Origin: Candidatus Scalindua sp.
GTDB lineage: Bacteria; Planctomycetota; Brocadiia; Brocadiales; Scalinduaceae
DNA length: 32,000 nt
Assembly (NCBI GenBank): GCA_031316235.1
Contig: JALDRA010000001.1
Coordinates: forward strand, 1,350,001-1,382,000
Reading direction: 5' to 3'
The position numbers and the translations under genes were made by a program. This document shows positions 4,224 to 32,000 of this stretch, piece after piece (within the stretch, counting starts at the first letter, position 1; each line of letters opens with the position of its first letter). The notes below the pieces were generated by a model. The model did not search any database. It saw nothing but the letters and a program-made list of their open reading frames with translations, and was not told where the DNA came from.

Positions 4224-4385
4224 TTCCTTTTATTAAGCAAAAAGCGTTTAACGCGGCGGCTGGCAGGGAAACAAAGCGTCAACCACAAACACTCTCGAAT
4301 GGCCCTGTATTGCACCTGAGACTTGATAAACACTCAACCGGGATTATCGTTAGCAAGCTGGTAATAAACTGGCTGCAGTGCGTAT

Positions 4386-4418
4386 GGTTGAGCAGGCGAA
4401 AGAGCCACCTGCTCAACC
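4386..4418 (+). other. Strong hairpin in a 558-bp non-coding gap
   Basis: GGTTGAGCAGG (4386-4396) pairs perfectly with CCTGCTCAACC (4408-4418) across an 11-nt loop. It is followed by AAGGAG (4424-4429) and an 18-codon ORF at 4436-4492. Confidence 0.4.
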
Positions 4419-4682
4419 CGTAAAAGGAGAAGAAAATGTTTTTAACATTTACAGGAATTAAAACATTTTTCAGTTCCTATTTGTTCCCGTAAATTATTTT
4501 TTTTTTACACCATGGCAAAAAACGGGTTCAAGCAGACACTCCAAAATGAAGAAAATCAGAGGCTGCCCGCCTGATTGAAGCAGGAGGAGGGGGATCCCTC
4601 GCGGCTACAAAGGCAGGCTATATAGTTATTTAAACCAAAACTACCCATCTACCGCGTTGCGCTAATAATTCGTCAATCATCA

Positions 4683-4748
4683 GGTATACTCATCTCTCCC
4701 ATAGATAACGATACAGATCATCTGAGGGTGCCATCCTGAGATGAGCAC
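4683..4748. repeat. Repeat-family variant (R9): module-B termini in inverted orientation around a different core
   Basis: Begins GGTATACTCATCTC (4683-4696) and ends GAGATGAGCAC (4738-4748). The core holds an imperfect hairpin, TCATCTGAGG...CCTGAGATGA. It lies 34 bp downstream of the stop of the 461-aa gene. Confidence 0.55.
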
Positions 4749-4781
4749 GGTTCAGCACCTATTGTCAATAAAATCAGAACG

Positions 4782-6167: not shown

Positions 6168-6550
6168 CAGGAATCATACTACAGATTTACCATTAACTTA
6201 TTCGCCGTCACTATGCGCCCCTGTATTCAGGACATTACCTGAGTACTATACAAAATATATCACCATTGTAAAACCTTTATTTCGTAAAGCCGCTGGCAAT
6301 CGCAGATCCTGAACCATATGCAGGCAGAAATCAGATGCACTGGAAAAAAGGGCAGTGAACTTGAAACCGGAGCGCACCGTTTAATGATGAAATATTGGAC
6401 AATCCCTGATTATCAGAACCGGAATGGCCCGTTTCATCAGCCGATATGTCCCTCCTGGTTTGTGTCAAATAGTGAACGTCAAGAATTTTGTAGTAATAAA
6501 AGCCCTCAAATGTTAAATAATATGGTGTTATCAAATGTGTGAAGCGAATA

Positions 6551-6692
6551 TATACTAAAACCGATTAGGTTTTCGGTTTTACCGGAAACAAAATCTTGGT
6601 GAAGGTATACTCGCTCAAATTTTTCTCGGATTTTATCCGAAAACCATTGTGAGATGAGTATACCATTAACCAGGCTTTGGTTCTTACCAAGG
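6551..6692 (+). repeat. Two-hairpin mosaic repeat, complete copy (R2, 6551-6662) plus an adjoining partial module-A-like hairpin (6664-6692)
   Basis: TATACTAAAACCGATTAGGTTTTCGGTTTTACCGGAAACAAAATCTTGGTGAAGGTATACTCGCTCAAATTTTTCTCGGATTTTATCCGAAAACCATTGTGAGATGAGTATA. The module-A stem carries two mismatches, consistent with a decaying copy. It is followed by AACCAGGCTTTGGTTCTTACCAAGGG, which matches the module-A variant seen at 27357 and 14820. The region ends 8 bp before the GNAT::deacetylase start codon. Confidence 0.9.
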
Positions 6693-6699
6693 GTTACCT

Positions 6700-8445
6700 A
6701 TGATCAGAATAAGAATTTTAAGAGATACCGGTTCTCTTTTATCCAGTGACCGGGTGAAACAGATTCAGGAAATCTTTGCACAAAGCTTCCCAAAGCTGGC
6801 AGGCTACGCGGAAAAGATTCCGCTGCTGATACGTGATCCCATCCGCAACAGATACTGTACAATCCTGGTTGTAGCTGAAGGCGCTCTGGGACGGGTGGAT
6901 GGGTTTGCCCTTGTCATGCATTTCCCTGAGATAAATTGCTGCTTTCTGGATTTCATAGCCACACGATCAGGATTGCGTGGCAGGGGAGTAGGGAGCGCAC
7001 TCTATGAGGCGGTCAGTGAAAACTGCAGAAACCTTTCCGTTAAAGGACTCTATTTTGAAGCGCAGCCTGATCTACCGGATTTGACCCCCGACCCATCAGA
7101 GTTAAAACAGGCAGGGATAACCATCCGTTTTTACGAACTGCACGGCGTAAGGGTAATAGAGAATCACGCATATTCTGTTCCTGTAGGTGATCCTCCTACA
7201 ACCGCCATTCTGTTATTCGACGGCCTGGGGATTACCCATACCCTTGCAAGGGAGGAGGCCCGGGAGGCGATTAAGATTATTCTTACAACCCGTTTTGCCA
7301 AGGCTACCGATTCAGAGTACGTTGACCGGGTTATTGAATCCTTCAGGGACGATCCTGTTAATTTCCGTCCTCTTCGTTACATAAAAGCCGTTAAGGAGCC
7401 CCTGTTAATACGCAATTTTAACTCCCCTCTCGCGTATACTTCCGTGTTCAGCCCTAAACACGAAATTCATCATGTCAAGGAACGTGGATATTTCGAACGC
7501 CCGATACGGGTGGAAGTCATTCGGGAGGTTATCGGCGACATTGGCGATTTTGTATCAGCTGCTCCGCGTGAATACGGCGAGAAATGGATCCTTGCTGTTC
7601 ACGATAAAATATTTGTTCATTACCTTCGTACGGTTTGCGCTTCACTGCGGCAGGGACGGCCTGTATACCCGGATACTTTTCCTATCAGGAGGCCGGATAA
7701 TCGGCCAAAGGAGTTGCCGGTACAGGCTGGCTATTATTGCATTGACACCGGAACTCCTTTGTACGCAAATGCTTACATAGGGGCACGCGCAGCGGTAAAT
7801 ACAGCCCTGACAGGCGCGGATGAAATCCTGTCCGGAAAACGGCTGGTATACTCGATATGCCGGCCTCCCGGCCATCATGCCGGAAAACGTTTCTTCGGCG
7901 GATTCTGTTACTTTAATAATGCGGCTATCGCGGCAAACTATCTCAGCCGGGAGGGAAAGGTGGCTATTCTTGATATTGATTTTCATCATGGCAACGGCAC
8001 CCAGGATATCTTTTATCACAGGAAAGATGTCCTGACCGTATCTATCCATGGCCATCCTGATTACTCATATCCCTATTTTTCCGGTTATGAGTCTGAAAGA
8101 GGGGAAGGGGAAGGAGTAGATTTCAATCGGAATTTCCCCCTGCCTCCGCGGACAGAGAATGATAAATATCTTCGTGTGTTTGATAAAGCGGTAAATTTGA
8201 TCTTGAACTTCAAGCCGGATATCCTGGTTGTCTCTCTCGGATTTGATATCCTTAAAGGAGATCCGACAGGCACGTTTCTTTTGAGTCCTAAAATATTTGA
8301 GAGTATTGGAAGCCGCCTGATATCGACAAAGAAACCTTTGCTTGTTGTTCAGGAAGGAGGCTACAACATCAGGGGCATACGCAACGGATCAAGAGCTTTT
8401 TTTAAAGGCTGCAGAGAAAAAAAGGGGAGTTCAATTCTCCATTAG
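6700..8445 (+). CDS. Fusion protein: N-terminal GNAT acetyltransferase domain plus C-terminal histone-deacetylase/acetylpolyamine-amidohydrolase family domain (581 aa)
   Basis: GNAT motif A is present (LRGRGVGSALYEAV) in the first ~175 aa. Deacetylase signatures are intact: RPPGHHAGKRFFGGFCYFNNAA, ILDIDFHHGNGTQDIFY, VVSLGFDILKGDP, VVQEGGYN. Single uninterrupted ORF. Confidence 0.85.
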   Translation: MIRIRILRDTGSLLSSDRVKQIQEIFAQSFPKLAGYAEKIPLLIRDPIRNRYCTILVVAEGALGRVDGFALVMHFPEINCCFLDFIATRSGLRGRGVGSALYEAVSENCRNLSVKGLYFEAQPDLPDLTPDPSELKQAGITIRFYELHGVRVIENHAYSVPVGDPPTTAILLFDGLGITHTLAREEAREAIKIILTTRFAKATDSEYVDRVIESFRDDPVNFRPLRYIKAVKEPLLIRNFNSPLAYTSVFSPKHEIHHVKERGYFERPIRVEVIREVIGDIGDFVSAAPREYGEKWILAVHDKIFVHYLRTVCASLRQGRPVYPDTFPIRRPDNRPKELPVQAGYYCIDTGTPLYANAYIGARAAVNTALTGADEILSGKRLVYSICRPPGHHAGKRFFGGFCYFNNAAIAANYLSREGKVAILDIDFHHGNGTQDIFYHRKDVLTVSIHGHPDYSYPYFSGYESERGEGEGVDFNRNFPLPPRTENDKYLRVFDKAVNLILNFKPDILVVSLGFDILKGDPTGTFLLSPKIFESIGSRLISTKKPLLVVQEGGYNIRGIRNGSRAFFKGCREKKGSSILH

Positions 8446-8467
8446 GCGTATATAAATCAATAAGGAC

Positions 8468-8513
8468 AAGTTTTTCTCGGATTTTATCCGAAATCCAGTA
8501 TGAGATGAGTATA
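8468..8513 (+). repeat. Solo module B of the repeat family (R3)
   Basis: TTTTTCTCGGATTTTATCCGAAATCCAGTATGAGATGAGTATA is identical to the right half of the 28072 copy. No module A is present. It starts 23 bp after the GNAT::deacetylase stop. A degenerate GTATATA at 8448-8454 may be the inner boundary. Confidence 0.8.
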
Positions 8514-14705: not shown

Positions 14706-14876
14706 TATACTCATCTTATAATTGTTTAGGGATAAAATCCTGGATAAAGCGGAACGAGTAGAGTCCTCGGCGTTTTTTGTCCGGGAAAAGTCCTCGGCGT
14801 CTGGTTTTGTCCGGTTATACCGGCAGCCAGGCTTTGGTTTTGAGAAAAACCTAAAACCAAATCGATTTTCGTGTAT
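14706..14876 (-). repeat. Expanded, divergent copy of the repeat family (R4) with an internal 27-bp tandem duplication
   Basis: Starts TATACTCATCTTATAATTGTTTAGGGATAAAATCCTGG (module-B variant) and ends AAAACCTAAAACCAAATCGATTTTCGTGTAT (module-A variant). Between them, AGTCCTCGGCGT occurs at 14762 and 14789, and TTTTGTCCGG at 14775 and 14805. It lies in the divergent intergenic region between the Memo-like and ThiI-like genes. Confidence 0.7.
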
Positions 14877-19525: not shown

Positions 19526-19795
19526 TCAAATCATATCTTTGAATTTCTTGCCAACCTTGAATCCTACTGTTTTACTGGCTTTCACCTTGATTATCTCACC
19601 TGTCTGGGGGTTCCGCGCTTTTCTGGCCTTCCTTTTCTTTATCAGAAAACTCCCAAACCCCAATAATTGTACACCCTTGTCCTTTTTTACGCCCTTGCTG
19701 ATGTTGTCCAGCACAGCATTAACGGCTCTCTCTCCTTCTGCCTTTGATATGTCTAGCTCTTTTGATACCGCTTCGATCAAATCTCGCTTATTCAT
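19526..19795 (-). CDS. hup: HU-family DNA-binding protein (89 aa)
   Basis: MNKRDLIEAVSKELDISKAEGERAVNAVLDNISKGV...LLGFGSF...RKARNPQTGEIIKVKASKTVGFKVGKKFKD. RBS AAGGGGGAG. Confidence 0.9.
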   Translation of the reverse strand: MNKRDLIEAVSKELDISKAEGERAVNAVLDNISKGVKKDKGVQLLGFGSFLIKKRKARKARNPQTGEIIKVKASKTVGFKVGKKFKDMI

Positions 19796-19861
19796 TTACT
19801 CCCCCTTTATTAAATTAAAATACCTCTATTTCAGCAACTTCCTCCCCTTACAAACCCCCTG

Positions 19862-20335
19862 TCAAACTACCATACCGACAATAACACCTTCAAAAACAAG
19901 TTTGCCATTTACGATCCCCTGGGTATCAAAAATAGCCCTCCTTGCCCTGAGTTCTCTATTTTTCGCAACGATAATAAATCTATCGCCTGGTATAACTTTC
20001 CCTCTGAATTTTACTTTGTCTATGCCACCAAAACCTAAAAATCTATCATCCTCTATAACTCTTTTATAATAATAGGTACATAGCTGCGCAGCTGCCTCCA
20101 TCATCAGTACACCGGGAAAAAGCGGACGGCCTGGGATATGGCCACGTACCCAGAACTCATCATCTTTTACCTCTTTAAATCCAATGATAATTTTATTCTC
20201 AGGATCAAATTTAATTATCCCATTGAGCTGCTCCATTTCATAGCGATGGGGATTTACCGCTCTGATCCCTTCTCTATCTATCTCTATATCATTGATATCT
20301 ATCTCGTTAATGTTGATGAAAAGTTCCTGTGGCAT
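19862..20335 (-). CDS. FabA/FabZ-family hotdog dehydratase (3-hydroxyacyl-ACP dehydratase-like), 157 aa
   Basis: NPHRYEMEQL...FWVRGHIPGRPLFPGVLMMEAAAQL...GIDKVKFRGKVIPGD matches the FabZ active-site region. The PHRYEM versus PHRYPF difference is why I do not name it fabZ. Confidence 0.75.
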   Translation of the reverse strand: MPQELFININEIDINDIEIDREGIRAVNPHRYEMEQLNGIIKFDPENKIIIGFKEVKDDEFWVRGHIPGRPLFPGVLMMEAAAQLCTYYYKRVIEDDRFLGFGGIDKVKFRGKVIPGDRFIIVAKNRELRARRAIFDTQGIVNGKLVFEGVIVGMVV

Positions 20336-20411
20336 TGCAAAATACTATTATTACCATGCATCTTTGTCAATAAAATTTTCTTGCGGGAACGTATTTAATC
20401 AGGGAAAAACA

Positions 20412-20488
20412 TGGTAGCGGTGCAGGGACTCGAACCCCGGACTCGCGGATTATGATTCCGCTGCTCTAACCAACTGAGCTACACCGCC
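20412..20488 (-). tRNA. tRNA with CAU anticodon (elongator Met, or Ile2 if lysidine-modified), CCA encoded
   Basis: Minus-strand sequence: GGCGGTG TA GCTC AGTTGGTTA GAGC A GCGGA ATCATAA TCCGC GAGTC CGGGG TTCGAGT CCCTG CACCGCT A CCA. It folds as a cloverleaf with G1-U72 and one G-U pair in the T stem. It lacks initiator features (no C1:A72 mismatch, no three G-C pairs at the anticodon-stem base). Confidence 0.9.
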
Positions 20489-20742
20489 ACAACATTATGC
20501 TCTTATGAGGGACTTTTACAATCCCAATTCAGCGGTTTTGCAAAAGCGGAACGTATTATATATTTAAAACAGCAAAACGTCAATTTATAATTACACTCAG
20601 AGGGAAACATTTATTCCCCTCTCTTTCTTCAGAAAAGATGAGGAACTGGTGGGTAGCTGTATTCAGGTATGATGGGAATAAAGAGAGAGAGCGCACACGA
20701 TTAAAGCCTCCATGCAAAAAACCGTTTGCAGATGGCCTTGTT

Positions 20743-21102
20743 TTAATTTCCCTGTTTCCGAACTTCCTTTTTGATCTCTTCCACTTCCGGGCCGAAATGG
20801 CTTCTTCCATATTGATCCAGCAGTTTGTCATATTTATAGCTTCTTGTCGTTATGAGTCCTAATCCGTTCCCCTGTATATTATATTCATACATCATGATAA
20901 CCTCCTGCCTTGTATCGACAAGATAAAAAGATTCCCTGCTGCCTTCAACGTGACCTACCACTCCAAATACATGTTTTGCAAATGCACCTCCGTCTCCCTG
21001 CTGGGCTACTACATAATTTGGTGAATTCTTTATCAGTACGAAAACTAACAGCATTATAATGACTCCCATCAGTATTGTATTCAGTCCATATTTTTTATCC
21101 AT
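20743..21102 (-). CDS. Small membrane-anchored hypothetical protein (119 aa), last gene of the secretin operon
   Basis: Start moved to ATG 21102, preceded by GGGGAGAAAAAGACATG. N-terminal TM helix LNTILMGVIIMLLVFVLI, then a soluble domain. No family recognised. Confidence 0.6.
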   Translation of the reverse strand: MDKKYGLNTILMGVIIMLLVFVLIKNSPNYVVAQQGDGGAFAKHVFGVVGHVEGSRESFYLVDTRQEVIMMYEYNIQGNGLGLITTRSYKYDKLLDQYGRSHFGPEVEEIKKEVRKQGN

Positions 21103-21143
21103 GTCTTTTTCTCCCCATATTTTGCTGGTTCCATCGGTCAAAT

Positions 21144-23444
21144 TTATTCTGAAGGATATCTGAATTGCTTATCTTCCCATTGTGTCGGATTAGCATATCC
21201 CGCCTTCGGTTTTCCCAAGGCATAGGCACGGGTTTCTTCCTCATCCCTTATCAATATCGTAGGCTTTATCAAGATGATAAGATTGCCTGACGCCGCTATA
21301 TCCCTGTCTAATGAATTACTGGAAAACAGCCTCTTTAAGATGGGAATCTTTGAGAGAATTGGCGTACCTGCGGACATTTCCTTCTCTGCCCTGGACCCCA
21401 ACCCACCGATCATCAGGATCCCTTTATCAGGCACACAAACCGTAACTGATAACTCCTGCTTGGTTGTTATCGGAAGCTGAATTGTATTCGTTGCCGGAAC
21501 ACCGCCTGCACCACCAGATGATACTGGACCAACAGTTTCAAATGATATCTGATCAAATTCCACTCTCGTAATAACCGGATGCACTTCAAGATACACATAT
21601 TTCCTGTCAGCACTGACGATTGGTCTTACATTAAATGTTGTACCATCGTCAATTTCCTTTATCACTGGTTCCGGTGTCTGACTTACAATTCTAAAGCTTT
21701 CGATATAATTAAAAGTCGTAACCACCTTGATAGACCCTCGTTGTGTATTGGACAGCGTTATCTTGGGAGAAGTCAAGGACTCGGCTTCATCGCTCTCCTG
21801 TACCGCCCGCAAAAACCCCTTGAGAAAAAATCCCTCTACGATCTGGTATGTCAGATTCAGACCGTTTGCACCGCTGGCCACTGCGCTGCCTGCAAATATA
21901 TCCCCAGGATCGGTAAAGAAACCGCTCACTACACCGCCTGCGTCGTTTTGCCCTGGCGTTCCCTTTGGATTACTTTGGCTGGGGCGCTCAGACGATGTAT
22001 CAAAATCAAGAATACTGCTCCCCACCGATTCCAGAAAATTATCAGAGACTGCTATGAACCTCGCTTCTATGTTCACCTGAAGGTCTGAAGAAGAGCGTAA
22101 TGAGGCAAGCAGGTCTCCAATCTGTTTGTGTACCAGCCAGGATTGTGTCACTACGATATCACCCAGCATGCCTTCACGTGCCGCTATCATACCTCTTCCG
22201 CTGTTTAATGCCCATGAAGAAGGTTCAATCGTATGAACTATCAAGTCTATTATCTCCTGCACACGGTAGAAGGTGTCCTTATTCTCTCCATCAGCGAGGC
22301 TCTTTTCCTCTCCACCATCAACCGGCGCTTGAGCAGATAGATCCTGCCTATCTTCCAGATTTATTAACAAATCACGTACATCATACACTCTTAATTCCAG
22401 GGGTTCCTGGGTAATATAGACAATATCTTCTTTAATGACAGAATCTACTCCTTTGGGTAATATGTACTTCAGGATCACATTTACATCCACATTATCGAGT
22501 TTTAAATTTACGCTTTGATCCGCAGCAGCTTCATCCAGGACAAAATTCAGTTTTGTCTTTTCCTGAAGCAATGCTACCACATCGCGGAGGGGAGTATCAA
22601 TAAATTCAACAGACAGCTTTCTGTTTAATCCGTCTTTCATAACCCGGGAAATTTGATTTTGGGAAGGAGAAGGCACGGTTTGCAACCGCTCTGTGTGGAC
22701 TCTTCCCTTTTCAAGACTTTCGTTTTGCTCTTCTCTCTGAACTCTTTTCTTGATATCATTCCATTCATTTTTTTCCGTATACTGCAGAATATCATTGTAG
22801 GGAATAGATCTCTCACGTAAATTTTCAAAATACTTATCGCGCTCCTGTGCATCAAGTTTTTCTAATTGCCCCATGATTGCAAGGTGTTTTCTATCTTCCA
22901 GTTCGATAAGTGCATTTTCCTTATACGCCAAGGCTGAAGAATCGTTGGGATTGTCTTTCAGTATGGAATCTGTTATATTAATAACATCCACGTATCGCTG
23001 CTCTTTTGTGGCACGTTTCGCCTCCTTAAGCCGATCTTTCAGCTTCTCGTGAGTAACGGTCTCAAAAGGAGCATCTTTAACCTGATTATGACCTCCGATG
23101 TTATCGTCTTTCTCAACAAAAACAGTTTTCTGTTTTACAGCGACCGGGCTTGATCTCTCCTGGTCAAGATATTGCACATTGGTGACGGCAACCGTTTTAG
23201 TCATCTCTTTATTGCCGGCCTTTTCGTTATCTGTTTCCGGTTCTTTCTTGAAGAATCTCTTTTTTATAACATCATACAGGCTTACTTCCTCGTTCTGGGA
23301 TTTTCCCCTATCGAAATCATACGTATCATGCATCTCACCAATTCCGGCCTTTTCGTTACCTACTGCCTGATTTAATAATGTTGTGTTGCATGCGCTCATG
23401 AGAAGGAGAAGTAGAATTGGTATGTAAAAAGAATTTTTTTTCAT
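21144..23444 (-). CDS. Secretin (PilQ/GspD family outer-membrane channel), lipoprotein-type signal, ~766 aa
   Basis: C-terminal secretin domain ...VTVCVPDKGILMIGGLGSRAEKEMSAGTPILSKIPILKRLFSSNS...LIILIKPTIL. Start set to ATG 23444 (AAGGTG 8 nt upstream), giving MKKNSFYIPILLLLLMSAC with a lipobox. Confidence 0.9.
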   Translation of the reverse strand: MKKNSFYIPILLLLLMSACNTTLLNQAVGNEKAGIGEMHDTYDFDRGKSQNEEVSLYDVIKKRFFKKEPETDNEKAGNKEMTKTVAVTNVQYLDQERSSPVAVKQKTVFVEKDDNIGGHNQVKDAPFETVTHEKLKDRLKEAKRATKEQRYVDVINITDSILKDNPNDSSALAYKENALIELEDRKHLAIMGQLEKLDAQERDKYFENLRERSIPYNDILQYTEKNEWNDIKKRVQREEQNESLEKGRVHTERLQTVPSPSQNQISRVMKDGLNRKLSVEFIDTPLRDVVALLQEKTKLNFVLDEAAADQSVNLKLDNVDVNVILKYILPKGVDSVIKEDIVYITQEPLELRVYDVRDLLINLEDRQDLSAQAPVDGGEEKSLADGENKDTFYRVQEIIDLIVHTIEPSSWALNSGRGMIAAREGMLGDIVVTQSWLVHKQIGDLLASLRSSSDLQVNIEARFIAVSDNFLESVGSSILDFDTSSERPSQSNPKGTPGQNDAGGVVSGFFTDPGDIFAGSAVASGANGLNLTYQIVEGFFLKGFLRAVQESDEAESLTSPKITLSNTQRGSIKVVTTFNYIESFRIVSQTPEPVIKEIDDGTTFNVRPIVSADRKYVYLEVHPVITRVEFDQISFETVGPVSSGGAGGVPATNTIQLPITTKQELSVTVCVPDKGILMIGGLGSRAEKEMSAGTPILSKIPILKRLFSSNSLDRDIAASGNLIILIKPTILIRDEEETRAYALGKPKAGYANPTQWEDKQFRYPSE

Positions 23445-23498
23445 TGGAATTTTCACCTTTACCCTTTCAGACAAAAAATGTAGGCATAACGTAATATT

Positions 23499-24380
23499 TT
23501 ACTCAATTTTATTTTCTCCTGGCTTCTTCTCTTTTGTTAGCTTCTCTTTCAGATTTGAGGACACATTGTCATACTTTGACTTCACTGCCCCGACAGGATC
23601 TTCCCGCCAATTTGGTTCTTCTTTCGGTTCTTCCGTAATAATTTGAGATTCTCCCAGCCACAACTCTTTTGTAATACCCTCTTCATCTTTGTATATAATC
23701 TTTGCAGTATTCTTCATAAATGTTTCGCCCGGTTCCATTCTCGTCCCAACAAACTTCCCTGCATCACTTAATACAACAACCTTCTTCATCAATGTTACCG
23801 GCCTTTCCACTTTGTTGATAATGTCTTCAACAACACAATTTGTTGTAAAATCATACTTCACATTCCTGATGAGCTTCTCTGAACCTATCTGGTCACTGCT
23901 CCTCAAGGGGAAACTATATTGACGCCACACTTCATTTATCTTTCTCCGTACGTTAACAAGGGCGAGCTTGTCGGTTACCCCTTTTAATGAAATTTGTGTC
24001 GGAAGCTGGCTCTCAGTTCTCCGTTCGTGAACAATTTCTGTTTCCGAACGATCTACTGTCTCCTCACGGATTTTATTTTCCCATACAGGACCGGCAAATA
24101 TTGATGTCTTTTCGATTAACTTATTGAAGGGGATTGTATTAGTTTTATCCACAAGCTTGGTTTCGGCAGCAGATTCTTCAGGCTCTACTGGAGGATGTGC
24201 CCGTTTCAGGTTCGCTTCTAATGTGCTTGTAATACTTGAAATCCTTGACCACAGCTTCCTCTCCTTCATACGTGAAATGATAAATATACTGACAAGATTA
24301 TATACAATAAAGAGTGTCAATAGTGACAAGACTGCCTTGTACGTATAATCAGAAATTTTTTTCTTTTTTAATATATCCAT
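23499..24380 (-). CDS. Hypothetical bitopic membrane protein (293 aa) of the secretin operon (PilP-position gene)
   Basis: One N-terminal TM (AVLSLLTLFIVYNLVSIFII). Gene spacing to neighbours is 14-24 bp. No sequence family recognised, so the role is inferred from position only. Confidence 0.6.
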   Translation of the reverse strand: MDILKKKKISDYTYKAVLSLLTLFIVYNLVSIFIISRMKERKLWSRISSITSTLEANLKRAHPPVEPEESAAETKLVDKTNTIPFNKLIEKTSIFAGPVWENKIREETVDRSETEIVHERRTESQLPTQISLKGVTDKLALVNVRRKINEVWRQYSFPLRSSDQIGSEKLIRNVKYDFTTNCVVEDIINKVERPVTLMKKVVVLSDAGKFVGTRMEPGETFMKNTAKIIYKDEEGITKELWLGESQIITEEPKEEPNWREDPVGAVKSKYDNVSSNLKEKLTKEKKPGENKIE

Positions 24381-24394
24381 GAGTTAGATTCCAT

Positions 24395-25228
24395 TTACGT
24401 TTTAAAATCTATGGCATGTGTCTCAATAACAACATGCACCCTAGTATCAGGCATATTATTCGTCACATCTGCGGCTGCACCCATCAATCTTATTTTGTTC
24501 AGTTTTCCCTCTATATTTACCGTATCTATTTCAAAACAGAGTTTTGAGTTTAATAACTCATGAATAAAAGCAAGTATCTGTTCAATATCCATAGTTACTT
24601 TTATAGAACAGGGGATGATGTCATAAAACTTCGACGCTGTACCTGCAGGAGACAGATCACCTTCCTGGAAACGAATACTTTCAATGCGGTTTATTTTCAG
24701 CTCTTTCTTTTTCATTATCCCCAACAACTCTTTCACAATCCAGAATCTCTTCTGCTCTCTCACAATGCTGTCCCACGTGGGGATTTCATCACCCCATTCT
24801 TTAAAAGAGAGTGTTCCCTTGCTTACCGGCAGATTACTCCCTGCCATAGTGCCAAGAAGAACATCTGTATTCTCTATATACCTGCTTTTCCAGAGGGCCA
24901 CATCTGTAATTTCCTCTTCATCTTCAAAACCAAATATCTTTTCGAGAGAGAGATCTCTTTTCGCAAATAACTCAATATTTTTCTGTTTCTCCTCTTTTGT
25001 TCTATCCAATTTCTCCTCTTCAGCTTTAATCCATTGCCGGTTTATAATTCCCAGGCCTTTTTTCTCATATCTCTCCAGCTCTGATAATATACGTTCCAGG
25101 GACTCAACTTGTTTCCTGTTTTCAAGCCTGTATGGGTTAGCAAGGAAAACGTATAGAAACGAAAGAAACGCAACTATTCCTCCTGTAATAAACCAGAATG
25201 CATTTTTTTTTATTATCACTATATTCAT
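24395..25228 (-). CDS. Hypothetical bitopic membrane protein (277 aa), PilO-like architecture
   Basis: An N-terminal TM (FWFITGGIVAFLSFLYVFL) is followed by a coiled-coil-like charged region and then a globular domain. It sits directly after the PilM::PilN gene. Confidence 0.6.
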   Translation of the reverse strand: MNIVIIKKNAFWFITGGIVAFLSFLYVFLANPYRLENRKQVESLERILSELERYEKKGLGIINRQWIKAEEEKLDRTKEEKQKNIELFAKRDLSLEKIFGFEDEEEITDVALWKSRYIENTDVLLGTMAGSNLPVSKGTLSFKEWGDEIPTWDSIVREQKRFWIVKELLGIMKKKELKINRIESIRFQEGDLSPAGTASKFYDIIPCSIKVTMDIEQILAFIHELLNSKLCFEIDTVNIEGKLNKIRLMGAAADVTNNMPDTRVHVVIETHAIDFKT

Positions 25229-25252
25229 CTTGATTATCTCTTCCGGAATTAG

Positions 25253-26992
25253 TTAGAAATACTCGTTAATTGTGTTTACTATCCATCGTATTTCAAAGGC
25301 AATACCTCTCATATTCTGACTGATCTCCAAACCACCTGATCTGTTCCGGACAAGCAATGGAATATTGTAAATCGACCCCTTCACAAACTCTACATCCCTA
25401 AAGGAGGGGGATTCATTTTGAAATAATTTCAGATTCGCGATGGGGATTTTAACCCTCTCCTCTAAATATTGCATACCTGGGTCATTACTTTCTCCCTTCA
25501 TAGTCATGACTAAAACTTTCCCACCAGCGTCTACAGGTTTTCCTGCTTTCTTTTTTCGAGAAGAATCATTTTTATTGTTTGATCCATCCATGTAAGGGTG
25601 TTGCATTGACGAATTCAAGCTTAACAAATGAACTTTCTCCGGCATAATCTCAATGATAGTACGAATAGACTCTATCCAGAAACTCCCTTTCGTTCCTATC
25701 GTCGTCAAAGCCCGGAGATCTTCTTCTTCCAGCTCAACCTTCTTTTCTACGTCCAGATACGCCCTTTCAAAATTTTTCACTTTCTTCTGTGTTTCGCTGA
25801 TGGTATTCATGTCCCTTGATAGAGCTCTTGAAGACACATAATCCTTAATACCCTGCGTAAGCAACCCGAAGAAAAGTAAACACACAAGTGTTGCAACCAT
25901 CTCCTTTTGTCTTGGTTTCTGCCGTTCCCTCATGTATTCCAGGGGAAGGAGATTTATTTTTATCTTACTAACACCCAAACCTTGCACTGCAAGACCTATT
26001 GCTGTCCCAAAACTATGAATTGCTTTTTTGTTTTGAACTGCAGAATCCACCTCTTCTGCTATCTCAATACTATCCAATACGTTAAGAAAATGAACTTTCC
26101 CTTCTAGGTTTTCTCTCACAAATTTTACTTTATCATCATCCTTTAATCCTTCTCCCATTAAGAATATGTTTTCAGGCTTTGTATCCTTTGCAATCGAAAC
26201 ATAGTATCCTATTGACCTCTGTATTTCCCGTACCAGATCCATATTCATTTCAGAAATCGGAATGCTCCTGTTCCAATACTTTGATTTTCCAGCAACAATG
26301 AAATCCGTACTATCTTTCTGAACATTTACGACGAAAATATCCTCATCCTGTTCGCACAACAACTGCACAAGATTATAAATTGCTATCGGATTAATTTGTA
26401 TGGCCTCAATGTTCGATTTTATCGGCGTGAGGCTTGACAAAACGCTATAAATGTTTTCCTTTTTCGTGGCAAAAATACCAATTTCAGGTCCATTTCCACT
26501 TTTTGAACTGTCACTGAATTGATGATAATCCCATACAATTTCACTCGAATCAAAAGGAACCTGCTTTTGCAGCTCATATTTTATCGCGTCAACAATCTGA
26601 CCTTTCTTCATGGGAGGAAATGAAACAAACCTTGATAAAACCATCTTGGCAGGGAGCGATACCACTATTCTCTCAGATTTCTCAATTTCATTGCGAGTTA
26701 CGAAATTGTTTATTGCATTTTCAACTATTTCTGCATTTGTAGTGGCAGCACTCTGGTTCATTGTTGAAATTTCAACTCTATCAATCGCCTCTACCAGCAA
26801 TTTTCCATTATGCAATTTAACCTTTGTCGCCTTTAATTCACTGTCACCAATTTCCAGACCCCAGGCACTCTTACTCTTTGCTCTTTTTCCTGAACGAAAA
26901 TATTTTACCGAGTAATTTCCAGATTTCATGTTATTAAGGATATTTTTCATCTTCATATTCTGATAAAAAAAAGTGATGGTCATTTCACACAC
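25253..26992 (-). CDS. PilM::PilN fusion (type IV pilus / T2SS-like inner-membrane assembly platform), up to 579 aa; start uncertain (GTG 26992, ATG 26983, 26956 or 26950)
   Basis: PilM actin-like N-terminus (AWGLEIGDSELKATKVKLHNGKLLVEAIDRVEI...SLPAKMVLSRFVSFPPMKKGQIVDAIKYELQKQVPF). Then the PilN hallmark INLLPLEY with a TM (MVATLVCLLFFGLLTQGI) and about 190 further residues. Confidence 0.8.
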   Translation of the reverse strand: MCEMTITFFYQNMKMKNILNNMKSGNYSVKYFRSGKRAKSKSAWGLEIGDSELKATKVKLHNGKLLVEAIDRVEISTMNQSAATTNAEIVENAINNFVTRNEIEKSERIVVSLPAKMVLSRFVSFPPMKKGQIVDAIKYELQKQVPFDSSEIVWDYHQFSDSSKSGNGPEIGIFATKKENIYSVLSSLTPIKSNIEAIQINPIAIYNLVQLLCEQDEDIFVVNVQKDSTDFIVAGKSKYWNRSIPISEMNMDLVREIQRSIGYYVSIAKDTKPENIFLMGEGLKDDDKVKFVRENLEGKVHFLNVLDSIEIAEEVDSAVQNKKAIHSFGTAIGLAVQGLGVSKIKINLLPLEYMRERQKPRQKEMVATLVCLLFFGLLTQGIKDYVSSRALSRDMNTISETQKKVKNFERAYLDVEKKVELEEEDLRALTTIGTKGSFWIESIRTIIEIMPEKVHLLSLNSSMQHPYMDGSNNKNDSSRKKKAGKPVDAGGKVLVMTMKGESNDPGMQYLEERVKIPIANLKLFQNESPSFRDVEFVKGSIYNIPLLVRNRSGGLEISQNMRGIAFEIRWIVNTINEYF

Positions 26993-27043
26993 TCACGAAG
27001 AGTATGAGCAGGAGTTCTGTCAACCAAAATAAGAAATTTACCG

Positions 27044-27259
27044 TTATGAATCTGTTATCACCTCAAGACTTTTTTCATCACTCAGTGTTGACGGCTGTTC
27101 TGTACCAAAGAAATAATCAATGTCCTGATGTAATAACTGCATATCTTTCTTAAACATACGGTTATGTGCTGCATTGTGGCGCATATCAGATGTGTAGCAT
27201 CCGGAAATACATGCAGAAGCTGCCAGTAAAATAATATAATCTTTGAGGAGTTTGAGCAT
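27044..27259 (-). CDS. Small lipoprotein (71 aa), first gene of the secretin operon
   Basis: RBS AGGAAAGATAAAATG. Signal peptide plus lipobox (ILLAASACISGC). Confidence 0.5.
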   Translation of the reverse strand: MLKLLKDYIILLAASACISGCYTSDMRHNAAHNRMFKKDMQLLHQDIDYFFGTEQPSTLSDEKSLEVITDS

Positions 27260-27356
27260 TTTATCTTTCCTAAAAAACTATAAAACTAAAAGTATGTTAA
27301 GCTGGTGTAAGGTTCTCTGAAAATAAATATCGTTAGTATCGTTTATTTATCATAGT

Positions 27357-27469
27357 TATACTGAAACCGGTTTGGTTTTATGTTTTTCTAAAAACCAAAG
27401 CCTGGTTGCTGATACACTCGCTCCGTTTTTTCTCGGTTTTTATCCGAAATCCAGTATAAGATGAGCATA
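27357..27469 (+). repeat. Divergent complete copy of the repeat family (R5)
   Basis: TATACTGAAACCGGTTTGGTTTTATGTTTTTCTAAAAACCAAAGCCTGGTTGCTGATACACTCGCTCCGTTTTTTCTCGGTTTTTATCCGAAATCCAGTATAAGATGAGCATA. Same ends and architecture as the other copies, but module A has a different inner stem and loop. It lies about 100 bp upstream of the operon start. Confidence 0.8.
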
Positions 27470-27505
27470 CATACCTGAAACAGATTATCATGCTTGGCAG
27501 GGAGT

Positions 27506-27918
27506 TTATTCGCAAACATAATGCCGTTTAGTTTTCTTTTTTTTGAGAGTACTAAGGACTCCTTGGTATACAATATAAAACACTTTGCAGAATTCATTGT
27601 TACCAGTACTCATGCTAAACCCTGTTGTGCTGTCTAATAAATCGACAGATCGAAGTGTTTTGCCATAGCGGTCTCCTGTTTTACATGCCAGTGTGAGTTT
27701 ATTACGAAAGGAATGCGTTATCACCATAATATCAATATATAAAGAGGGTAACTATGGTCCTCATTGTACACACTGACATCCTTGAACTTTGTACGATTAT
27801 TGTGAGAATCATGAAGTTCCGTAAGATTGATTATCACCGCTACCTCATCAGGTAGCTCTTCCAGCTTAAGCCACTTTGCCCCACTGTCTCTGAGTATTCC
27901 GGTATTGCAACAAACCCT
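27506..27918 (-). pseudogene. Possible decayed gene remnant between two repeat copies
   Basis: Two adjacent minus-strand open frames are offset by one frame. 27918-27724 has no start codon and translates to ...NTGILRDSGAKWLKLEELPDEVAVIINLTELHDSHNNRTKFKDVSVYNEDH.... 27727-27506 is the 73-aa ORF in the track. Neither matches a family I recognise. Confidence 0.2.
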
Positions 27919-28071
27919 CTATGCCTTTAACAGCTGGATATTTTCCTTGTAATAATTTTAGTAGCGTGCGGGGAGAACGACAGACATGAAAAACAAACAT
28001 ACTAGTGAGGATACTGATACCCTCTCTCTTGAAACAGAGGAGAACTGAAGGAGAACTGAAATTAGCAGAGA

Positions 28072-28183
28072 TATACTAAAACTGATCTGGTTTTCGGTTT
28101 TACCGGAAACCAGATCCTGGTGAAGGTATACTCGCTCAATTTTATCTCGGATTTTATCCGAAATCCAGTATGAGATGAGTATA
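28072..28183 (+). repeat. Two-hairpin mosaic repeat, complete copy (R6)
   Basis: TATACTAAAACTGATCTGGTTTTCGGTTTTACCGGAAACCAGATCCTGGTGAAGGTATACTCGCTCAATTTTATCTCGGATTTTATCCGAAATCCAGTATGAGATGAGTATA. It ends 5 bp from the decarboxylase stop codon (28189-28191). Confidence 0.9.
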
Positions 28184-28188
28184 CCGCA

Positions 28189-29499
28189 TTAAACAGAAGC
28201 GCTGATTGACTGCTCGTTATACTGAATTCCATTTGAGGCCTTCATAACCTTAATCTCATTATCCATTACAAAAACCTCAGAAGGAAGATTGTGTGACAAA
28301 AAGAGTAAAGGGCTTGCCGTTACTCCATAGGCTCCAGAATTTAAAATGCCAATGAAATCGCCGATCCGGACCTCTGGCAGCAGTATATCAGTTGCAATCC
28401 TGTCAATGGGCGTGCACAAAGGTCCAACAATGTGTACCTTTTCCAGTTCATTCCTGTTGTGTATTTCCAGCGGATACATGATGCTGTTTCTTCTCAAAAC
28501 CTGACCAAGGTTTCCTGAAGCAGCAAGGTGATGATTCATCCCTCCATCGAGTATGATGAACTTTTTCCCTCTTGAGGCCTTTATGTCTGTCACTTTCGCT
28601 ACGTAGACCCCACTCTGTGCCACCAGAAATCTGCCGAGTTCCAGGATAAACCGGGTGTTCCTGAGTTCAGGGGAAGTCTCTCGGGTATACGTTATGATTT
28701 CTTTTATCCCATTACATACTTCCAGTATATTCAATTCCCTGTCGCCCTCGTAGTAAGGGACACCGAATCCGCCACCTAAATTAATGCAGTTCAAGTCTAT
28801 GCCTTCATGGAGAAACAACCGTTTTGCTATCGCTATTGTTTCTGTAATATTCTCTATTATGGCCCTGGCATCCAGGCACTGTGTTCCGTTATATACGTGT
28901 ATTCCCCTAAGGTTCAGCAGACCGTGCTGCTTTATCATCTTTATTATTTCAGGCGCAATTTCTTCATCAATTCCGAATTGGGAAGGAACCCCTCCCATCT
29001 TGAGTAAAAATCTTTCCGGTTTACGGGTTGGATTTATCCGTAACATGATATTTGCTTTCAATGTTGTGGTTTTTACAATTTCAAGAATCTTCTCTATCTC
29101 CCTGCATGATTCAACGCTTATGGCAAATACCCTTTTTGTTATGGCTTCTGAAAGTTCTTTATTGCTTTTTCCCGGACCGGAAAAACTTATCGTCCCAGGT
29201 AAAATCCCCACACTCATGCATCGGGATAATTCACCCCCCGAAGAAATATCAACACCAGATTTAAGCGTTTTAAAAAGAGACAGGATCTCCCGTAGAGGGT
29301 TAGCCTTCACCGCATAGAAGATGTCCAGGTTCTCTGGCAGATGCTCCTCAAGGAGCCTGTACCTCTCTTTAATAGCTCTCGTAAAATAGAGATAGAATGG
29401 CCCTTCTACTTTACGGGCAATATCTAAAAGATCATGTCCACACATCTCAAGGTGGCTGAGTGTATTGATGCGAACAACTGAATTTTCCAGTAATTTCAT
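28189..29499 (-). CDS. PLP-dependent decarboxylase, group IV (diaminopimelate/ornithine decarboxylase fold), ~436 aa
   Basis: FYAVKANP (PLP lysine), NLGGGFGVPY and GPLCTPIDRIA. Start set to ATG 29499 (MKLLENS...) rather than the upstream GTG 29535. Its position after ACP and the ligase resembles the exosortase-associated decarboxylase family (recalled as TIGR03099; not verified). Confidence 0.85.
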   Translation of the reverse strand: MKLLENSVVRINTLSHLEMCGHDLLDIARKVEGPFYLYFTRAIKERYRLLEEHLPENLDIFYAVKANPLREILSLFKTLKSGVDISSGGELSRCMSVGILPGTISFSGPGKSNKELSEAITKRVFAISVESCREIEKILEIVKTTTLKANIMLRINPTRKPERFLLKMGGVPSQFGIDEEIAPEIIKMIKQHGLLNLRGIHVYNGTQCLDARAIIENITETIAIAKRLFLHEGIDLNCINLGGGFGVPYYEGDRELNILEVCNGIKEIITYTRETSPELRNTRFILELGRFLVAQSGVYVAKVTDIKASRGKKFIILDGGMNHHLAASGNLGQVLRRNSIMYPLEIHNRNELEKVHIVGPLCTPIDRIATDILLPEVRIGDFIGILNSGAYGVTASPLLFLSHNLPSEVFVMDNEIKVMKASNGIQYNEQSISASV

Positions 29500-29660
29500 A
29501 ATCTGCCAAAATAGCCTACCGGTGAGGCACTGCACCTGATAGTTCCGATAAAACCCGGTCTAACCGCGCCCTTGAGAGATTTCTGCCCGATAGATGTCAG
29601 GAATCTGCTCTGGTTAGAGTACTGTTCACAATTTAACTGTCAAATCAGCCGCATCCACCA

Positions 29661-31388
29661 TCAGTATAGACCGAAAGCGGCCTTCATACACTGCGAGGCT
29701 TCCTTTCGCAAGAGGGCCCTGTCTATCTTCCCGTTAGGGGTACACGGGATCGTTTCCCTGAATAGTATCTCTCCCGGAATCATGTAAGAAGGAATCGTAC
29801 CTCGTAAAAAATGTACTATTTCTTTTTTGGAACAGGCAGCACCCTCATTCAGGCTGACATAACAGACTATATCCTGTTCAAGATTCTCCTGTTCAACACC
29901 CACAGCAACTACACAACTAAATTTCCCCATACTCAGGAGAACCTCTTCGATCTCCGTCGGACTCACCCGGTAACCCATCTTTTTTATCATCTCATCCCGT
30001 CTTCCAACATAGTAAAGAAAACCCTCTTCGTCTGATTTTACCAGATCACCGGAGTAGACAACCTTCTCCGTAAGCAAGGTCTCTTTGGAGGCAAGAGGAT
30101 TCTGCCTGAACACCTCATCTGTCTTTACCGGATCATCCCAATATCCCAGGGATATCAATGCCCCACGGTGTACAAGTTCTCCAATTTCTCCCGGCCTGCA
30201 CGGCTTATCTTCTTTATCCAGAATATAAATCTCAACCCCGGGGATTGCCTTTCCGATAGAGTCCGGTCTAGACCTTACTAACGATGGGTCCAGGTACGTT
30301 GACCTGTGTGCCTCAGTTAAGCCATACATCAAATACAATTGAGTTTCAGGGAAGAGATCCAAAAGTCTGAATATAGTCTGCCTGGAAAGTTTCCCGCCGG
30401 AATTGGTTATGTATCTCAGGTGTGCAAAATTATCATCCTCCCTCTTGTCCTTCATTTCTGCTATTCGATTCCAGATAACGGGTACTCCAGCAACACCCGT
30501 TATCTTCTGTGCTCCTATGACCTTCAACAGGTCTTCGGGAAAAAGAAAATCATGAAGCACAATCGTCCCGCCTACTTTAATCGTTGTGAGCAACTGGTCT
30601 AAACCATAATCGAAACTGAAGGGCAGGATACTGAGAACAATGTCATCACTATTCATATTCAGATAATTCGAAATTATTTCTGCACCATCCATCAGGTTTT
30701 GGTGGGTAGTCATTATCCCTTTTGGAGAACCGGTACAACCAGAGGTATACATGATTGTTGCAAGATCTGAAGGTATACTAAAACCGATTTGGTTTTCGGT
30801 TTTACCGGAAACCAAATCTTGGTTAATGGTATACTCGCTCAAATTTATCTCGGATTTTATCCGAAATCCAGTATGAGAGGAGTATATACAGACGGTTTCA
30901 ATCAAGCAGTTCTTACTCTCTTCAGGGAGCCCACAAACGGACAGTACCTTTTCTGATCGAATCTCCGGAACAGGTTCAGCGTTTTCTTCAAAAAGGAATA
31001 TTCTTGAGATGGAGGTAAATCTACGTCCCACATAATCAACAGTTCTCAGTTTAAGGCTGTTACTGATGAGTAGTTTTATCCCGCAATCATTTGAAATATG
31101 TTCCAACTGGCTCTCTTTTAAAACGGGATTTAATAAAACGAATATCCCGCCAGCTTTAACAATTGCGAAAATAGATATTGCCTCTTCGATGGATTTTGGA
31201 AGATAGAGACCGATCCGATCTCCCTGTTTTGCGCCATTTTCCCGCAGCAATACTGCAAGCTTGTCGGATAATTCATCAAGTTCTCTGTATGTTATGGATT
31301 TAGAGCCAGAAACAATGGCCTTTTTCTCTGAAAACCCTGCACAGGAGTCTCTAAGAATTGCCTGTGTTGTCATATTCGATTGATACAT
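29661..31388 (-). CDS. Adenylate-forming acyl-CoA/ACP ligase (AMP-binding family) carrying an in-frame repeat insertion; start uncertain (31388 or 31373; track gives TTG 31430)
   Basis: Core motifs are intact: IVKAGGIFVLLNP, MYTSGCTGSPKG, LMYGLTEA, YSGDLV, GRRDEMIKKMGYRVSPTEIE, PNGKIDR. Residues ~181-220 (CIYSSHTGFRIKSEINLSEYTINQDLVSGKTENQIGFSIP) are the translation of the repeat at 30774-30889. Confidence 0.85.
   Translation of the reverse strand: MYQSNMTTQAILRDSCAGFSEKKAIVSGSKSITYRELDELSDKLAVLLRENGAKQGDRIGLYLPKSIEEAISIFAIVKAGGIFVLLNPVLKESQLEHISNDCGIKLLISNSLKLRTVDYVGRRFTSISRIFLFEENAEPVPEIRSEKVLSVCGLPEESKNCLIETVCIYSSHTGFRIKSEINLSEYTINQDLVSGKTENQIGFSIPSDLATIMYTSGCTGSPKGIMTTHQNLMDGAEIISNYLNMNSDDIVLSILPFSFDYGLDQLLTTIKVGGTIVLHDFLFPEDLLKVIGAQKITGVAGVPVIWNRIAEMKDKREDDNFAHLRYITNSGGKLSRQTIFRLLDLFPETQLYLMYGLTEAHRSTYLDPSLVRSRPDSIGKAIPGVEIYILDKEDKPCRPGEIGELVHRGALISLGYWDDPVKTDEVFRQNPLASKETLLTEKVVYSGDLVKSDEEGFLYYVGRRDEMIKKMGYRVSPTEIEEVLLSMGKFSCVVAVGVEQENLEQDIVCYVSLNEGAACSKKEIVHFLRGTIPSYMIPGEILFRETIPCTPNGKIDRALLRKEASQCMKAAFGLY
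30774..30889 (+). repeat. Two-hairpin mosaic repeat, complete copy (R7), located inside the ligase CDS
   Basis: TATACTAAAACCGATTTGGTTTTCGGTTTTACCGGAAACCAAATCTTGGTTAATGGTATACTCGCTCAAATTTATCTCGGATTTTATCCGAAATCCAGTATGAGAGGAGTATATAC. Same family as 1159, 6551 and 28072. Module A is 1 nt longer than in the 28072 copy, and there is an extra TA at the right end. Confidence 0.9.
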
Positions 31389-31626
31389 TTTTTTTTGCCA
31401 GGAGTTTGCCGATTGCATCGATCGTTTCAAAATTTCTGTGTGTCATATCATCAGTTGTGAATTCCACCCCATACACTCTCTGCAGATGAGCAACAAGTTC
31501 AAGGATATTCATCGAATCCAACAATCCACTTTCCAATAAGGATTCACGTATAGTGATACCGGTTTCCTGAGGTGTGACATCAAGAAAAGATAAAATTTCT
31601 GATTTTAGTTTTGCAATCGATGTCAT
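31351..31626 (-). CDS. Acyl carrier protein (91 aa)
   Basis: Phosphopantetheine attachment context GLLDSMNILELVAHLQRVYGV. Its 3' end overlaps the ligase start region, suggesting coupled translation. Confidence 0.8.
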   Translation of the reverse strand: MTSIAKLKSEILSFLDVTPQETGITIRESLLESGLLDSMNILELVAHLQRVYGVEFTTDDMTHRNFETIDAIGKLLAKKNVSIEYDNTGNS

Positions 31627-31760
31627 GTATTACTTTCCCAGGAATTCGCCAGACGTAACCATTACCCTGTTAGAATTTTTTAAAAAGCAATTTCTGGAAA
31701 TATCTGAAATGTTTCTCAACTCCTGCCAGAGAGAATCAAATAAAAACAAAAAACAGCGAT

Positions 31761-31797
31761 GGTATACTCATCTTATAGTGGGTTTCGTATAAATACC
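31761..31797 (-). repeat. Partial module-B-like fragment of the repeat family (R8)
   Basis: GGTATACTCATCTTATAGTGGGTTTCGTATAAATACC versus canonical GGTATACTCATCTCATACTGGATTTCGGATAAAATCC. It shares the CATCTTATA variant with the 14706 copy. It lies between the ACP promoter region and the sigma-54 activator stop. Confidence 0.5.
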
Positions 31798-31812
31798 CTC
31801 AAGGAAACATAT

Positions 31813-32000
31813 TCATTTTGCATCATCCGTCCGAATGCCATAGTCCTCCATCTTTCTATAAATAGTCGACCGGCTGACACCCAGTTTTTCTGCGGCCTCA
31901 GAGATATTGCCTCTCGTAATACTTATTGCCTGGCGAATAAAGACTTCTTCAACTTCACTCAAAGGGATTACCTCTCCTCTTTTAAGGGATACCTCCAATT
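31813..32000 (-). CDS. C-terminal fragment of a sigma-54-dependent transcriptional activator (Fis-type HTH); the gene continues beyond the window end
   Basis: EVFIRQAISITRGNISEAAEKLGVSRSTIYRKMEDYGI is the canonical NtrC-family C-terminal HTH. The M in the track is a TTG at the window edge, not a real start. Its position next to the ACP/ligase/decarboxylase set fits a PEP-CTERM-box regulator (PrsR-like), but this is inference. Confidence 0.75.
   Translation of the reverse strand, partial: LEVSLKRGEVIPLSEVEEVFIRQAISITRGNISEAAEKLGVSRSTIYRKMEDYGIRTDDAK

Follow-up and report, generated by a model that had tools for sequence, protein, structure and literature searches.

How can a protein-coding gene read straight through a complete copy of a mobile palindromic repeat, and how did the copy get there? 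This question is raised by a stretch of 32,000 nucleotides (nt) from the genome of Candidatus Scalindua sp. (assembly GCA_031316235.1, contig JALDRA010000001.1, forward strand, positions 1,350,001–1,382,000), the whole of which is referred to here as the window. Its minus-strand open reading frame (ORF) at 29661–31388 encodes a 575-amino-acid (aa) acyl-CoA ligase (AMP-forming) of the exosortase-A-associated type, with TIGR03098 as its best NCBIfam match, and inside this gene lies a complete copy of a repeat made of two hairpins (30774–30886, plus strand; 113 nt from TATAC to GTATA). We consider it likely that a non-autonomous, bipartite palindromic miniature inverted-repeat transposable element (MITE), 112–113 nt long and carried by anammox bacteria of the Scalindua lineage, recently entered a TA dinucleotide of the ligase gene, and that its read-through is tolerated.

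The repeat copy in the ligase gene and its empty site

The copy at 30774–30886 is a full-length nhmmer match to the repeat (120.5 bits). The ligase ORF runs through it without a single stop codon, as a reading made earlier from the letters alone (the sequence-only reading) had claimed, and the read-through translation is VCIYSSHTGFRIKSEINLSEYTINQDLVSGKTENQIGFSIPS. That reading had also put some 39–40 added residues at about positions 181–220; an insertion is indeed present, but its size and place are different, the net gain at the site being 111 nt, or 37 aa, at residues 168–204 as numbered from the ATG at 31388. The extra residues are IYSSHTGFRIKSEINLSEYTINQDLVSGKTENQIGFS (30777–30887, minus strand), delimited by protein alignment, translation and the limits of the insert, and a ligase that bears them is expected to yield tryptic peptides spanning the junction, for example SEINLSEYTINQDLVSGK. 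Folding and linker comparison divide the copy into two parts on the plus strand. Module A (30774–30829) is a hairpin, its stem about 15 bp long (folding z about −6.4), followed by the linker TTAATGG (30823–30829), and module B (30830–30886) is a second hairpin, which is bounded by TATACTC and GAGTATA and also occurs on its own at 8467–8513. The linker holds the extra base that gives the ligase copy its 113 nt, the 112-nt copies having TGAAGG in its place. Module B runs into the junction TATA (30885–30888, plus strand), one TA of which is the element end or target duplication (with its partner at 30774–30775) and the other the original target. Both peculiarities that had been pointed out for this copy are present, namely one additional nucleotide and, at one of its ends, an extra TA.

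The same site is preserved empty in a close relative. Contig L001, the DNA of which is 96–97% identical to the window over 19703–32000 (about 12 kb), encodes P0002, the closest orthologue of the ligase (96% aa identity over aligned columns). The L001 site reads GTCTGTATACCTTCAG, i.e. GTCTG-TATA-CCTTC, and the filled site of the window reads GTCTG-TA-[TATACTCC...TTTTAGTATA]-CCTTCAG, which leaves a gap of 111 nt in L001, no more and no less. The alignment of orthologues that had been proposed as a check on lineage specificity gave the same result at the protein level: the 37 residues are found in the window protein alone and are absent from 13 of 13 aligned orthologues, that is, from P0002, in which LIETVC is directly followed by IPSDLATIMY, and from 12 others. 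The lengths of the next-closest relatives of the ligase also agree with a missing insert. These comparisons point to a recent, lineage-specific insertion of the repeat copy into the ligase gene. The repeat family has been active since the lineages of the window and L001 split, because further copies differ between them: an intergenic 112-nt copy (28072–28183, plus strand; nhmmer) is missing in L001, and a remnant at 31760–31797 (minus strand; repeat search) corresponds to a long form of the repeat in L001, while an older and diverged intergenic copy of 113 nt (27357–27469, plus strand) is common to both. The first of these copies begins 5 nt past the stop codon of the neighbouring decarboxylase gene (28072–28188), where L001 carries an unrelated 159 nt; this difference is therefore a replacement rather than a simple insertion.

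A second gene with a copy in frame was found when the other copies of the repeat were scanned, as the sequence-only reading had advised. The nhmmer model, built from the copies of the window, matched 965 kb of loci 204 times, with 126 full-length matches. Only two of the 204 stand well within a long ORF and have genuine protein sequence on either side: the ligase copy and a copy in Scalindua RBC_AMX3 (L111, 7488–7600), in a gene for mannosyl-3-phosphoglycerate phosphatase (HAD-IIB). The phosphatase ORF has 311 aa, compared with 272–277 aa in eight aligned orthologues and 270–291 aa in most other close homologues. Its insert of 37 aa (YSSRNGFRIKSEIKLSEYNCNQDLVSSKTENQIGFSI) is missing in all the aligned orthologues, even in one with 88% identity. 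L121 has the empty site, AAGAATG-TA-ACAGAG, whereas the filled site reads AAGAATG-TA-[109 nt]-TA-ACAGAG, an unambiguous TA target-site duplication with a 113-nt copy and a net gain of 111 nt. The ligase site fits this scheme if the second TA of its TATA is taken as the target. The TA falls on codon positions 2–3 in each of the two genes (ATA and GTA), and the orientation of the element and the reading frame are identical. Six of the 204 matches fall inside ORFs of at least 120 aa, although such ORFs make up 69% of the sampled DNA, and four of these six concern N-termini or doubtful ORFs; selection probably removes intragenic copies.

The window comes from a metagenome-assembled genome (MAG) and the repeat is very abundant, conditions under which a copy could be misplaced in a gene during assembly. 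We regard such an artefact as extremely improbable, given that the boundaries of the insert are those of the element and lie at a TA, that the net gain is a multiple of three, that the flanks are unbroken, and that the analogous event in the phosphatase gene stands in a different assembly.

Reading frame and protein fold

A copy of 112 nt adds 110 nt and shifts the frame of its host gene, whereas a copy of 113 nt adds 111 nt. Among 50 short copies from Scalindua genomes, 29 have 113 nt (mostly with the linker TTGCAGT) and 18 have 112 nt (TGAAGG); long forms of 130–172 nt also exist. The 113-nt class usually has one of its six frames open, namely reverse frame 2 (24 of 29 copies), which is the frame used by both genes, so that an insertion of this class at random within a gene has one chance in six of keeping the ORF. 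It had been stated that the element is closed in all three forward frames and open in two of the three reverse frames. This is true of the copies at 1159–1270 and 28072–28183, but not of the copy at 6551–6662, with a single open reverse frame, or of the ligase copy, the open frames of which are forward frame 0 and reverse frame 2.

The possibility that selection maintains the open frame was considered and rejected, since the 24 open copies of 29 are indistinguishable from neutral drift: when the consensus is given random substitutions in the observed numbers, 23.1 ± 2.0 of 29 stay open. At least one open frame is found in 31% of shuffled elements. For the same reason, the idea of an orientation bias that betrays designed coding capacity is unsupported. 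We find it improbable that the 113-nt class is shaped for life in genes, as a true counterpart of the 'protein-coding palindromes' of Rickettsia, repeatedly adding one 37-residue peptide (YSSHNGFRIKSEIKLSEYNCNQDLVS.KTENQIGFSI) to many Scalindua proteins, in their surface loops and at their N-termini, with some of the grafts acquiring a function; if this were true, the element would be a source of protein novelty in a lineage that is free-living and environmentally important.

A different origin of the open frame had been proposed from the two peculiarities of the ligase copy: a standard 112-nt copy would have inserted and broken the frame, which a later gain of one nucleotide and an added TA would have restored. 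The ligase copy is otherwise closest to the 112-nt copies of the window, and its linker TTAATGG is unlike the main 113-nt linker TTGCAGT. This repair is nevertheless unsupported and very improbable, because 113 nt is the commonest length class, TTAATGG recurs in an unrelated truncated copy of the window (6656–6686) and in two copies of Scalindua sp. SCAELEC01, the phosphatase copy also has 113 nt and needed no repair, and the extra TA belongs to the original target TATA.

Typical ligase sequence lies on both sides of the insert, as first read, with the Pfam domains AMP-binding (PF00501) at residues 13–417 and AMP-binding_C (PF13193) at residues 479–554. The phosphate-binding loop (P-loop) motif YTSGCTGSPKG (residues 214–224; 30717–30749, minus strand) begins 10 residues past the end of the insert. 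Residues Y214–G224 and the catalytic K554 near the C-terminus are invariant columns in an alignment of 69 sequences, and the ligase keeps every residue that is invariant across these family members. Its two domains, P-loop motif and catalytic lysine place it in the ANL adenylate-forming superfamily. The insert lies past the first conserved block, which extends to about residue 113, and ahead of the strand before the P-loop, in a segment that varies in length and sequence among orthologues, and its assignment to the variable segment preceding the phosphate-binding loop is confirmed. The region of residues 114–190 is further marked as variable by the failure of solved homologues to align over it. 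In TIGR03098 searches, the ligase scores 588.5 bits in two stretches with the insert and 600.1 bits in one stretch once the insert is removed in silico, the curated cut-off being 592.35. The insert explains the score below the cut-off in part only, since the insert-free P0002 (586.5 bits) also falls just below it.

AlphaFold, run on the alignment of 69 sequences as had been recommended, returned a normal ligase fold (mean predicted local distance difference test (pLDDT) score 86.5, predicted template-modelling (pTM) score 0.88), with target-normalised TM scores of 0.82–0.87 for the best matches among solved ANL enzymes. Residues 169–202 have a pLDDT below 50 and no secondary structure, and are followed by a strand (209–213) and the P-loop. 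The insert is thus modelled as a low-confidence loop, although a low pLDDT is no proof of the surface excursion that had been looked for. The model fits, without proving it, a tolerated flexible surface loop in an intact adenylate-forming fold.

It is also conceivable that the segment is removed after transcription or translation, by an intron-like or intein-like process or by translational bypass, and that the protein remains unchanged. The element does form two strong hairpins in mRNA, and both of its strands fold far better than shuffled sequences (z about −6.5). However, no Rfam family matches the element and it has no intein or intron features, and the cases verified inside genes have an open, unshifted frame, though the search for them could detect read-through copies alone. 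We give this possibility next to no weight.

Mobility of the element and the case for tolerance

The repeat has several properties of a MITE: a size of 112–113 nt, well within the limit of about 500 bp for such elements, with no transposase coding, many dispersed copies, a TA duplication and presence/absence polymorphism. It behaves as a TA-duplicating non-autonomous MITE because the TA target duplication is clear in the phosphatase gene and consistent in the ligase gene. Such a duplication is a hallmark of IS630/Tc1-mariner transposition and of Correia elements, and the Scalindua element shares the TA target and its duplication with IS630/Tc1-mariner elements and the MITEs derived from them. 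Neither the window nor the loci examined yielded an IS630-type transposase or long inverted repeats that match those of the family. Pairs of modules A and B lying about 1.7 kb apart were considered as a possible autonomous parent and rejected, since they enclose an IS110-family element inside the repeat. In RBC_AMX3 this element stands at the junction of modules A and B at L059 (about 4512–6219) and L097 (about 3242–4951), with spacings of 1709 and 1711 nt. It encodes DEDD_Tnp_IS110 (PF01548) and Transposase_20 (PF02371) domains, is the sole transposase observed to touch the repeat and appears to use the repeat as its target. In the long forms (window 14706–14874; L001 9473–9581; L071 at about 2454 and 4497), the extra sequence at the A/B junction resembles both ends of the IS110-family element (GGTAT.CCGGACAAAA ... 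AACCAG.CGCCGAGGAC.TT ACTCGCTC), as if these forms were remnants or mini-derivatives of it.

According to the explanation that we favour, the element would have transposed into the ligase gene at a TA, which was duplicated in the process. The copy belongs to the 113-nt class, which adds 111 nt (3 × 37) when one duplicated TA is included. Of all orientations and codon phases it has the one (TA at positions 2–3) that is usually stop-free for this class, and the ligase stays one ORF because orientation and phase correspond to this configuration. The insertion point is in a length-variable linker just before the β-strand leading into the P-loop, at which the insert may be translated into a loop, flexible and on the surface, that does no harm to the fold and is tolerated. 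The open frame would be an accident of the sequence of the element, and selection would filter insertions, nearly all surviving copies being intergenic, rather than keep the element coding. The TA duplication suggests that an IS630/Tc1-mariner-type transposase may mobilise the element in trans.

The main rival to this explanation accepts the insertion and holds that it has inactivated or crippled the ligase, which would then be a very young pseudogene or belong to a dispensable pathway, with an ORF that is still intact because decay has had too little time. The insertion is recent, since it is missing in a relative with about 97% identity; it ends 10 residues before the P-loop motif, and a chance of one in six for an open configuration is not small. 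In addition, two deletions relative to L001, of 3 nt and 2 nt, affect the 3' end of the gene (29661–29700); they shift the frame of the last codons and shorten the protein (MKAAFGLY and a stop, as opposed to MKGPLSVYTDGFRASGCG). The statement that the rest of the gene shows no decay is thus correct except for this tail. On the other hand, the ORF is open over 575 codons with every family-invariant residue kept, and the insert is placed where orthologues already vary in length. The tail is unconserved outside the closest Scalindua; P0006, P0007 and orthologues at a greater distance either lack it or do not conserve it. The adjoining genes of the same operon are intact: upstream, a carrier-protein gene (31351–31626, minus strand) overlaps the start of the ligase gene and has weak, sub-cut-off matches to acyl carrier protein families (the PP-binding call in L001 is weak), and downstream lies a gene for a pyridoxal phosphate (PLP)-dependent decarboxylase of the exosortase-A-associated type (28189–29535, minus strand; TIGR03099, 436 bits with a cut-off of 478.45). 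The carrier-protein-like gene, the ligase and the decarboxylase stand in the expected order. A damaged ligase is unlikely on balance, and is retained as an alternative on account of the span of the dN/dS estimate (see below), the single MAG and the frameshifted, if unconserved, 3' tail.

Several observations weigh against a tolerated, TA-targeted insertion. The insert-bearing ligase, P0001, is known from one member on one contig, and hence from a single MAG of Candidatus Scalindua sp. (4.15-Mb contig), in which the NCBI protein is 100% identical. The ratio of non-synonymous to synonymous substitution rates (dN/dS) between the ligase genes of the window and L001 is 0.20 (25 synonymous and 18 non-synonymous differences), a value that spans their whole divergence and not the time since insertion. 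The frameshifted 3' tail could hint at relaxed constraint. That the ligase tolerates the insert is inferred from sequence and from a structural model in which the low pLDDT of the insert does not establish a surface position. The agreement of the two in-gene cases in orientation and frame is partly built in, because the search found only read-through copies. Lastly, no related autonomous element with matching ends was found in the window or in the 965 kb of loci, and the terminal inverted repeats of the element are short (TATACT, 6–7 nt).

Comparable systems are known from other bacteria. Correia elements (Correia repeat enclosed elements, CREE) of Neisseria are high-copy, non-autonomous elements of about 100–155 bp that insert at TA with duplication of the TA, and no transposase is known for them. 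They differ from the Scalindua element in having long terminal inverted repeats (about 26 bp) and a site for integration host factor (IHF), the Scalindua element being two tandem hairpins, the ends of which share TATACT only. Repetitive extragenic palindromes (REP) and bacterial interspersed mosaic elements (BIME) are mobilised by REP-associated tyrosine transposases (RAYT) and leave no target duplication. Like the Scalindua repeat, they are abundant, mostly extragenic palindromes often located just past stop codons. REPs have 20–40 bp and a GTAG or CGTC head (PMC3733652), a definition that excludes the Scalindua element, with its 112–113 nt, TATAC head and TA duplication. Rickettsia palindromic elements (RPE; Ogata et al. 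2000 and 2002) are described as occurring in frame inside unrelated metabolic genes as well as between genes, with a predicted compatibility with the fold of the host protein, and nearly half of those in three of ten families are said to lie inside ORFs (PMC10969869). The parallel with RPEs drawn by the sequence-only reading is a fair functional analogy: the Scalindua element is also a short mobile palindrome that is found between genes and in frame within genes (ligase and phosphatase), where the ORF is kept and a conserved peptide added. The comparison concerns behaviour. The hosts of RPEs are obligate intracellular alphaproteobacteria, whereas Scalindua is a free-living anammox planctomycete. 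Moreover, in-gene copies are rare in Scalindua (two clear cases per approximately 200 copies sampled), and the Scalindua element has a demonstrated TA duplication and an open frame with no sign of maintenance. MITEs with open frames fused in frame to host ORFs have been described for intragenic enterobacterial repetitive intergenic consensus (ERIC) sequences and other enterobacterial MITEs, QMITE1 of Coxiella, as well as MITEb and MITEe from Anabaena (PMC10969869). A review published in 2024 considered such fusions 'not unusual', with RPEs as the extreme case (PMC10969869). ERIC, QMITE1, MITEb and MITEe belong to other sequence families and hosts, and none was reported for anammox bacteria in the literature searched.

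The repeat family and its significance

The window holds eight copies or fragments of the repeat, and a full-length match did not arise in any of 100 shuffles. Each copy consists of two tandem hairpins, module A with 56 nt including the linker and module B with 57 nt; the ends of the element share TATACT/AGTATA alone (6–7 nt), and module B by itself forms an inverted repeat with about 10 of 13 matches. Apart from the copies already mentioned, repeat searches and nhmmer identified intergenic 112-nt copies at 1159–1270 (minus strand), which is 97% identical to the copy at 28072–28183, and at 6551–6662 (plus strand). The latter overlaps one end of an oppositely oriented, truncated module A (6656–6686, minus strand, with the linker TTAATGG), and the abutting copies at 6551–6686 look like a nested insertion. 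The long form at 14706–14874, recognized by repeat search and alignment, is on the minus strand. The solo module B (8467–8513, plus strand; repeat search) lies about 20 nt past the stop codon of a GNAT/deacetylase gene (6700–8445). Several copies sit directly 3' of genes, a position in which their hairpins might terminate transcription or stabilise mRNA.

In a pattern scan across representative genomes, matches fell in at least 119 blocks of 8 kb, from five genomes of the Scalindua lineage: Scalindua sp. SCAELEC01, RBC_AMX3, OFTM1, one Scalinduaceae MAG and one Anammoxibacter MAG. No match to the element was found in a plasmid collection, and the literature searched contained no description of such repeats in anammox bacteria. 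A metagenome scan for the 113-nt linker gave four short contigs, with no in-gene case among them.

Proteins in public collections provide some further candidates for read-through. The insert peptide had 17 matches among 1.84 billion cluster representatives, mostly ORFs of 55–106 aa that are probably miscalls over intergenic copies, and insert-bearing enzymes are hidden in such a search because they are clustered with their insert-free relatives. P0133 (193 aa) is a phosphoribosyltransferase-domain protein with a long-form insert at residues 109–156, and P0128 (241 aa) is a putative secreted protein in which the repeat peptide directly follows the signal peptide. Both are probable further cases of read-through, in the same frame as in the ligase and the phosphatase. 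Compared with the usual family sequence, P0133 also seems to lack an internal stretch between PLDVIIV and DDGLASG. In three other loci, copies just upstream of genes for signal-peptide proteins (L018 1153–1264; L062 7881–7992, continuing into L053; L074 7205–7372) are stop-free in the frame of the gene, and the stop-to-stop ORF therefore spans both repeat and gene. These copies may be N-terminal extensions, or the starts of the genes may have been called in the wrong place; the L074 repeat has no ATG after it.

Two other features of the window were noted. A PilM-like gene (25253–26992) forms one ORF of 579 aa, where two genes of 113 and 463 aa are called in L001 (97% identical), which indicates a frame difference between the two assemblies. 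A tRNA gene at 20415–20488 (minus strand) is the sole Rfam match in the window.

The repeat is an undescribed MITE of Scalindua, and its copy in the ligase gene is a real, well-delimited and recent in-frame insertion, explained by TA-targeted transposition combined with a selective filter. Events of this kind are already known from Rickettsia and other bacteria, and no new mechanism is involved. For annotators of Scalindua genomes, a repeat insert of this type splits a family match and lowers its score (588.5 as opposed to 600.1 bits for the ligase). The conditions under which a gene can absorb a copy come down to a simple rule: a length class that adds a multiple of three nucleotides, one open frame, a TA at codon positions 2–3 and a length-variable linker at the point of entry. 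The ligase gene offers a clean, datable case in which an enzyme has taken up a mobile repeat as a new loop and a near-identical relative keeps the empty site, and it extends the phenomenon known from Rickettsia beyond reduced intracellular genomes.

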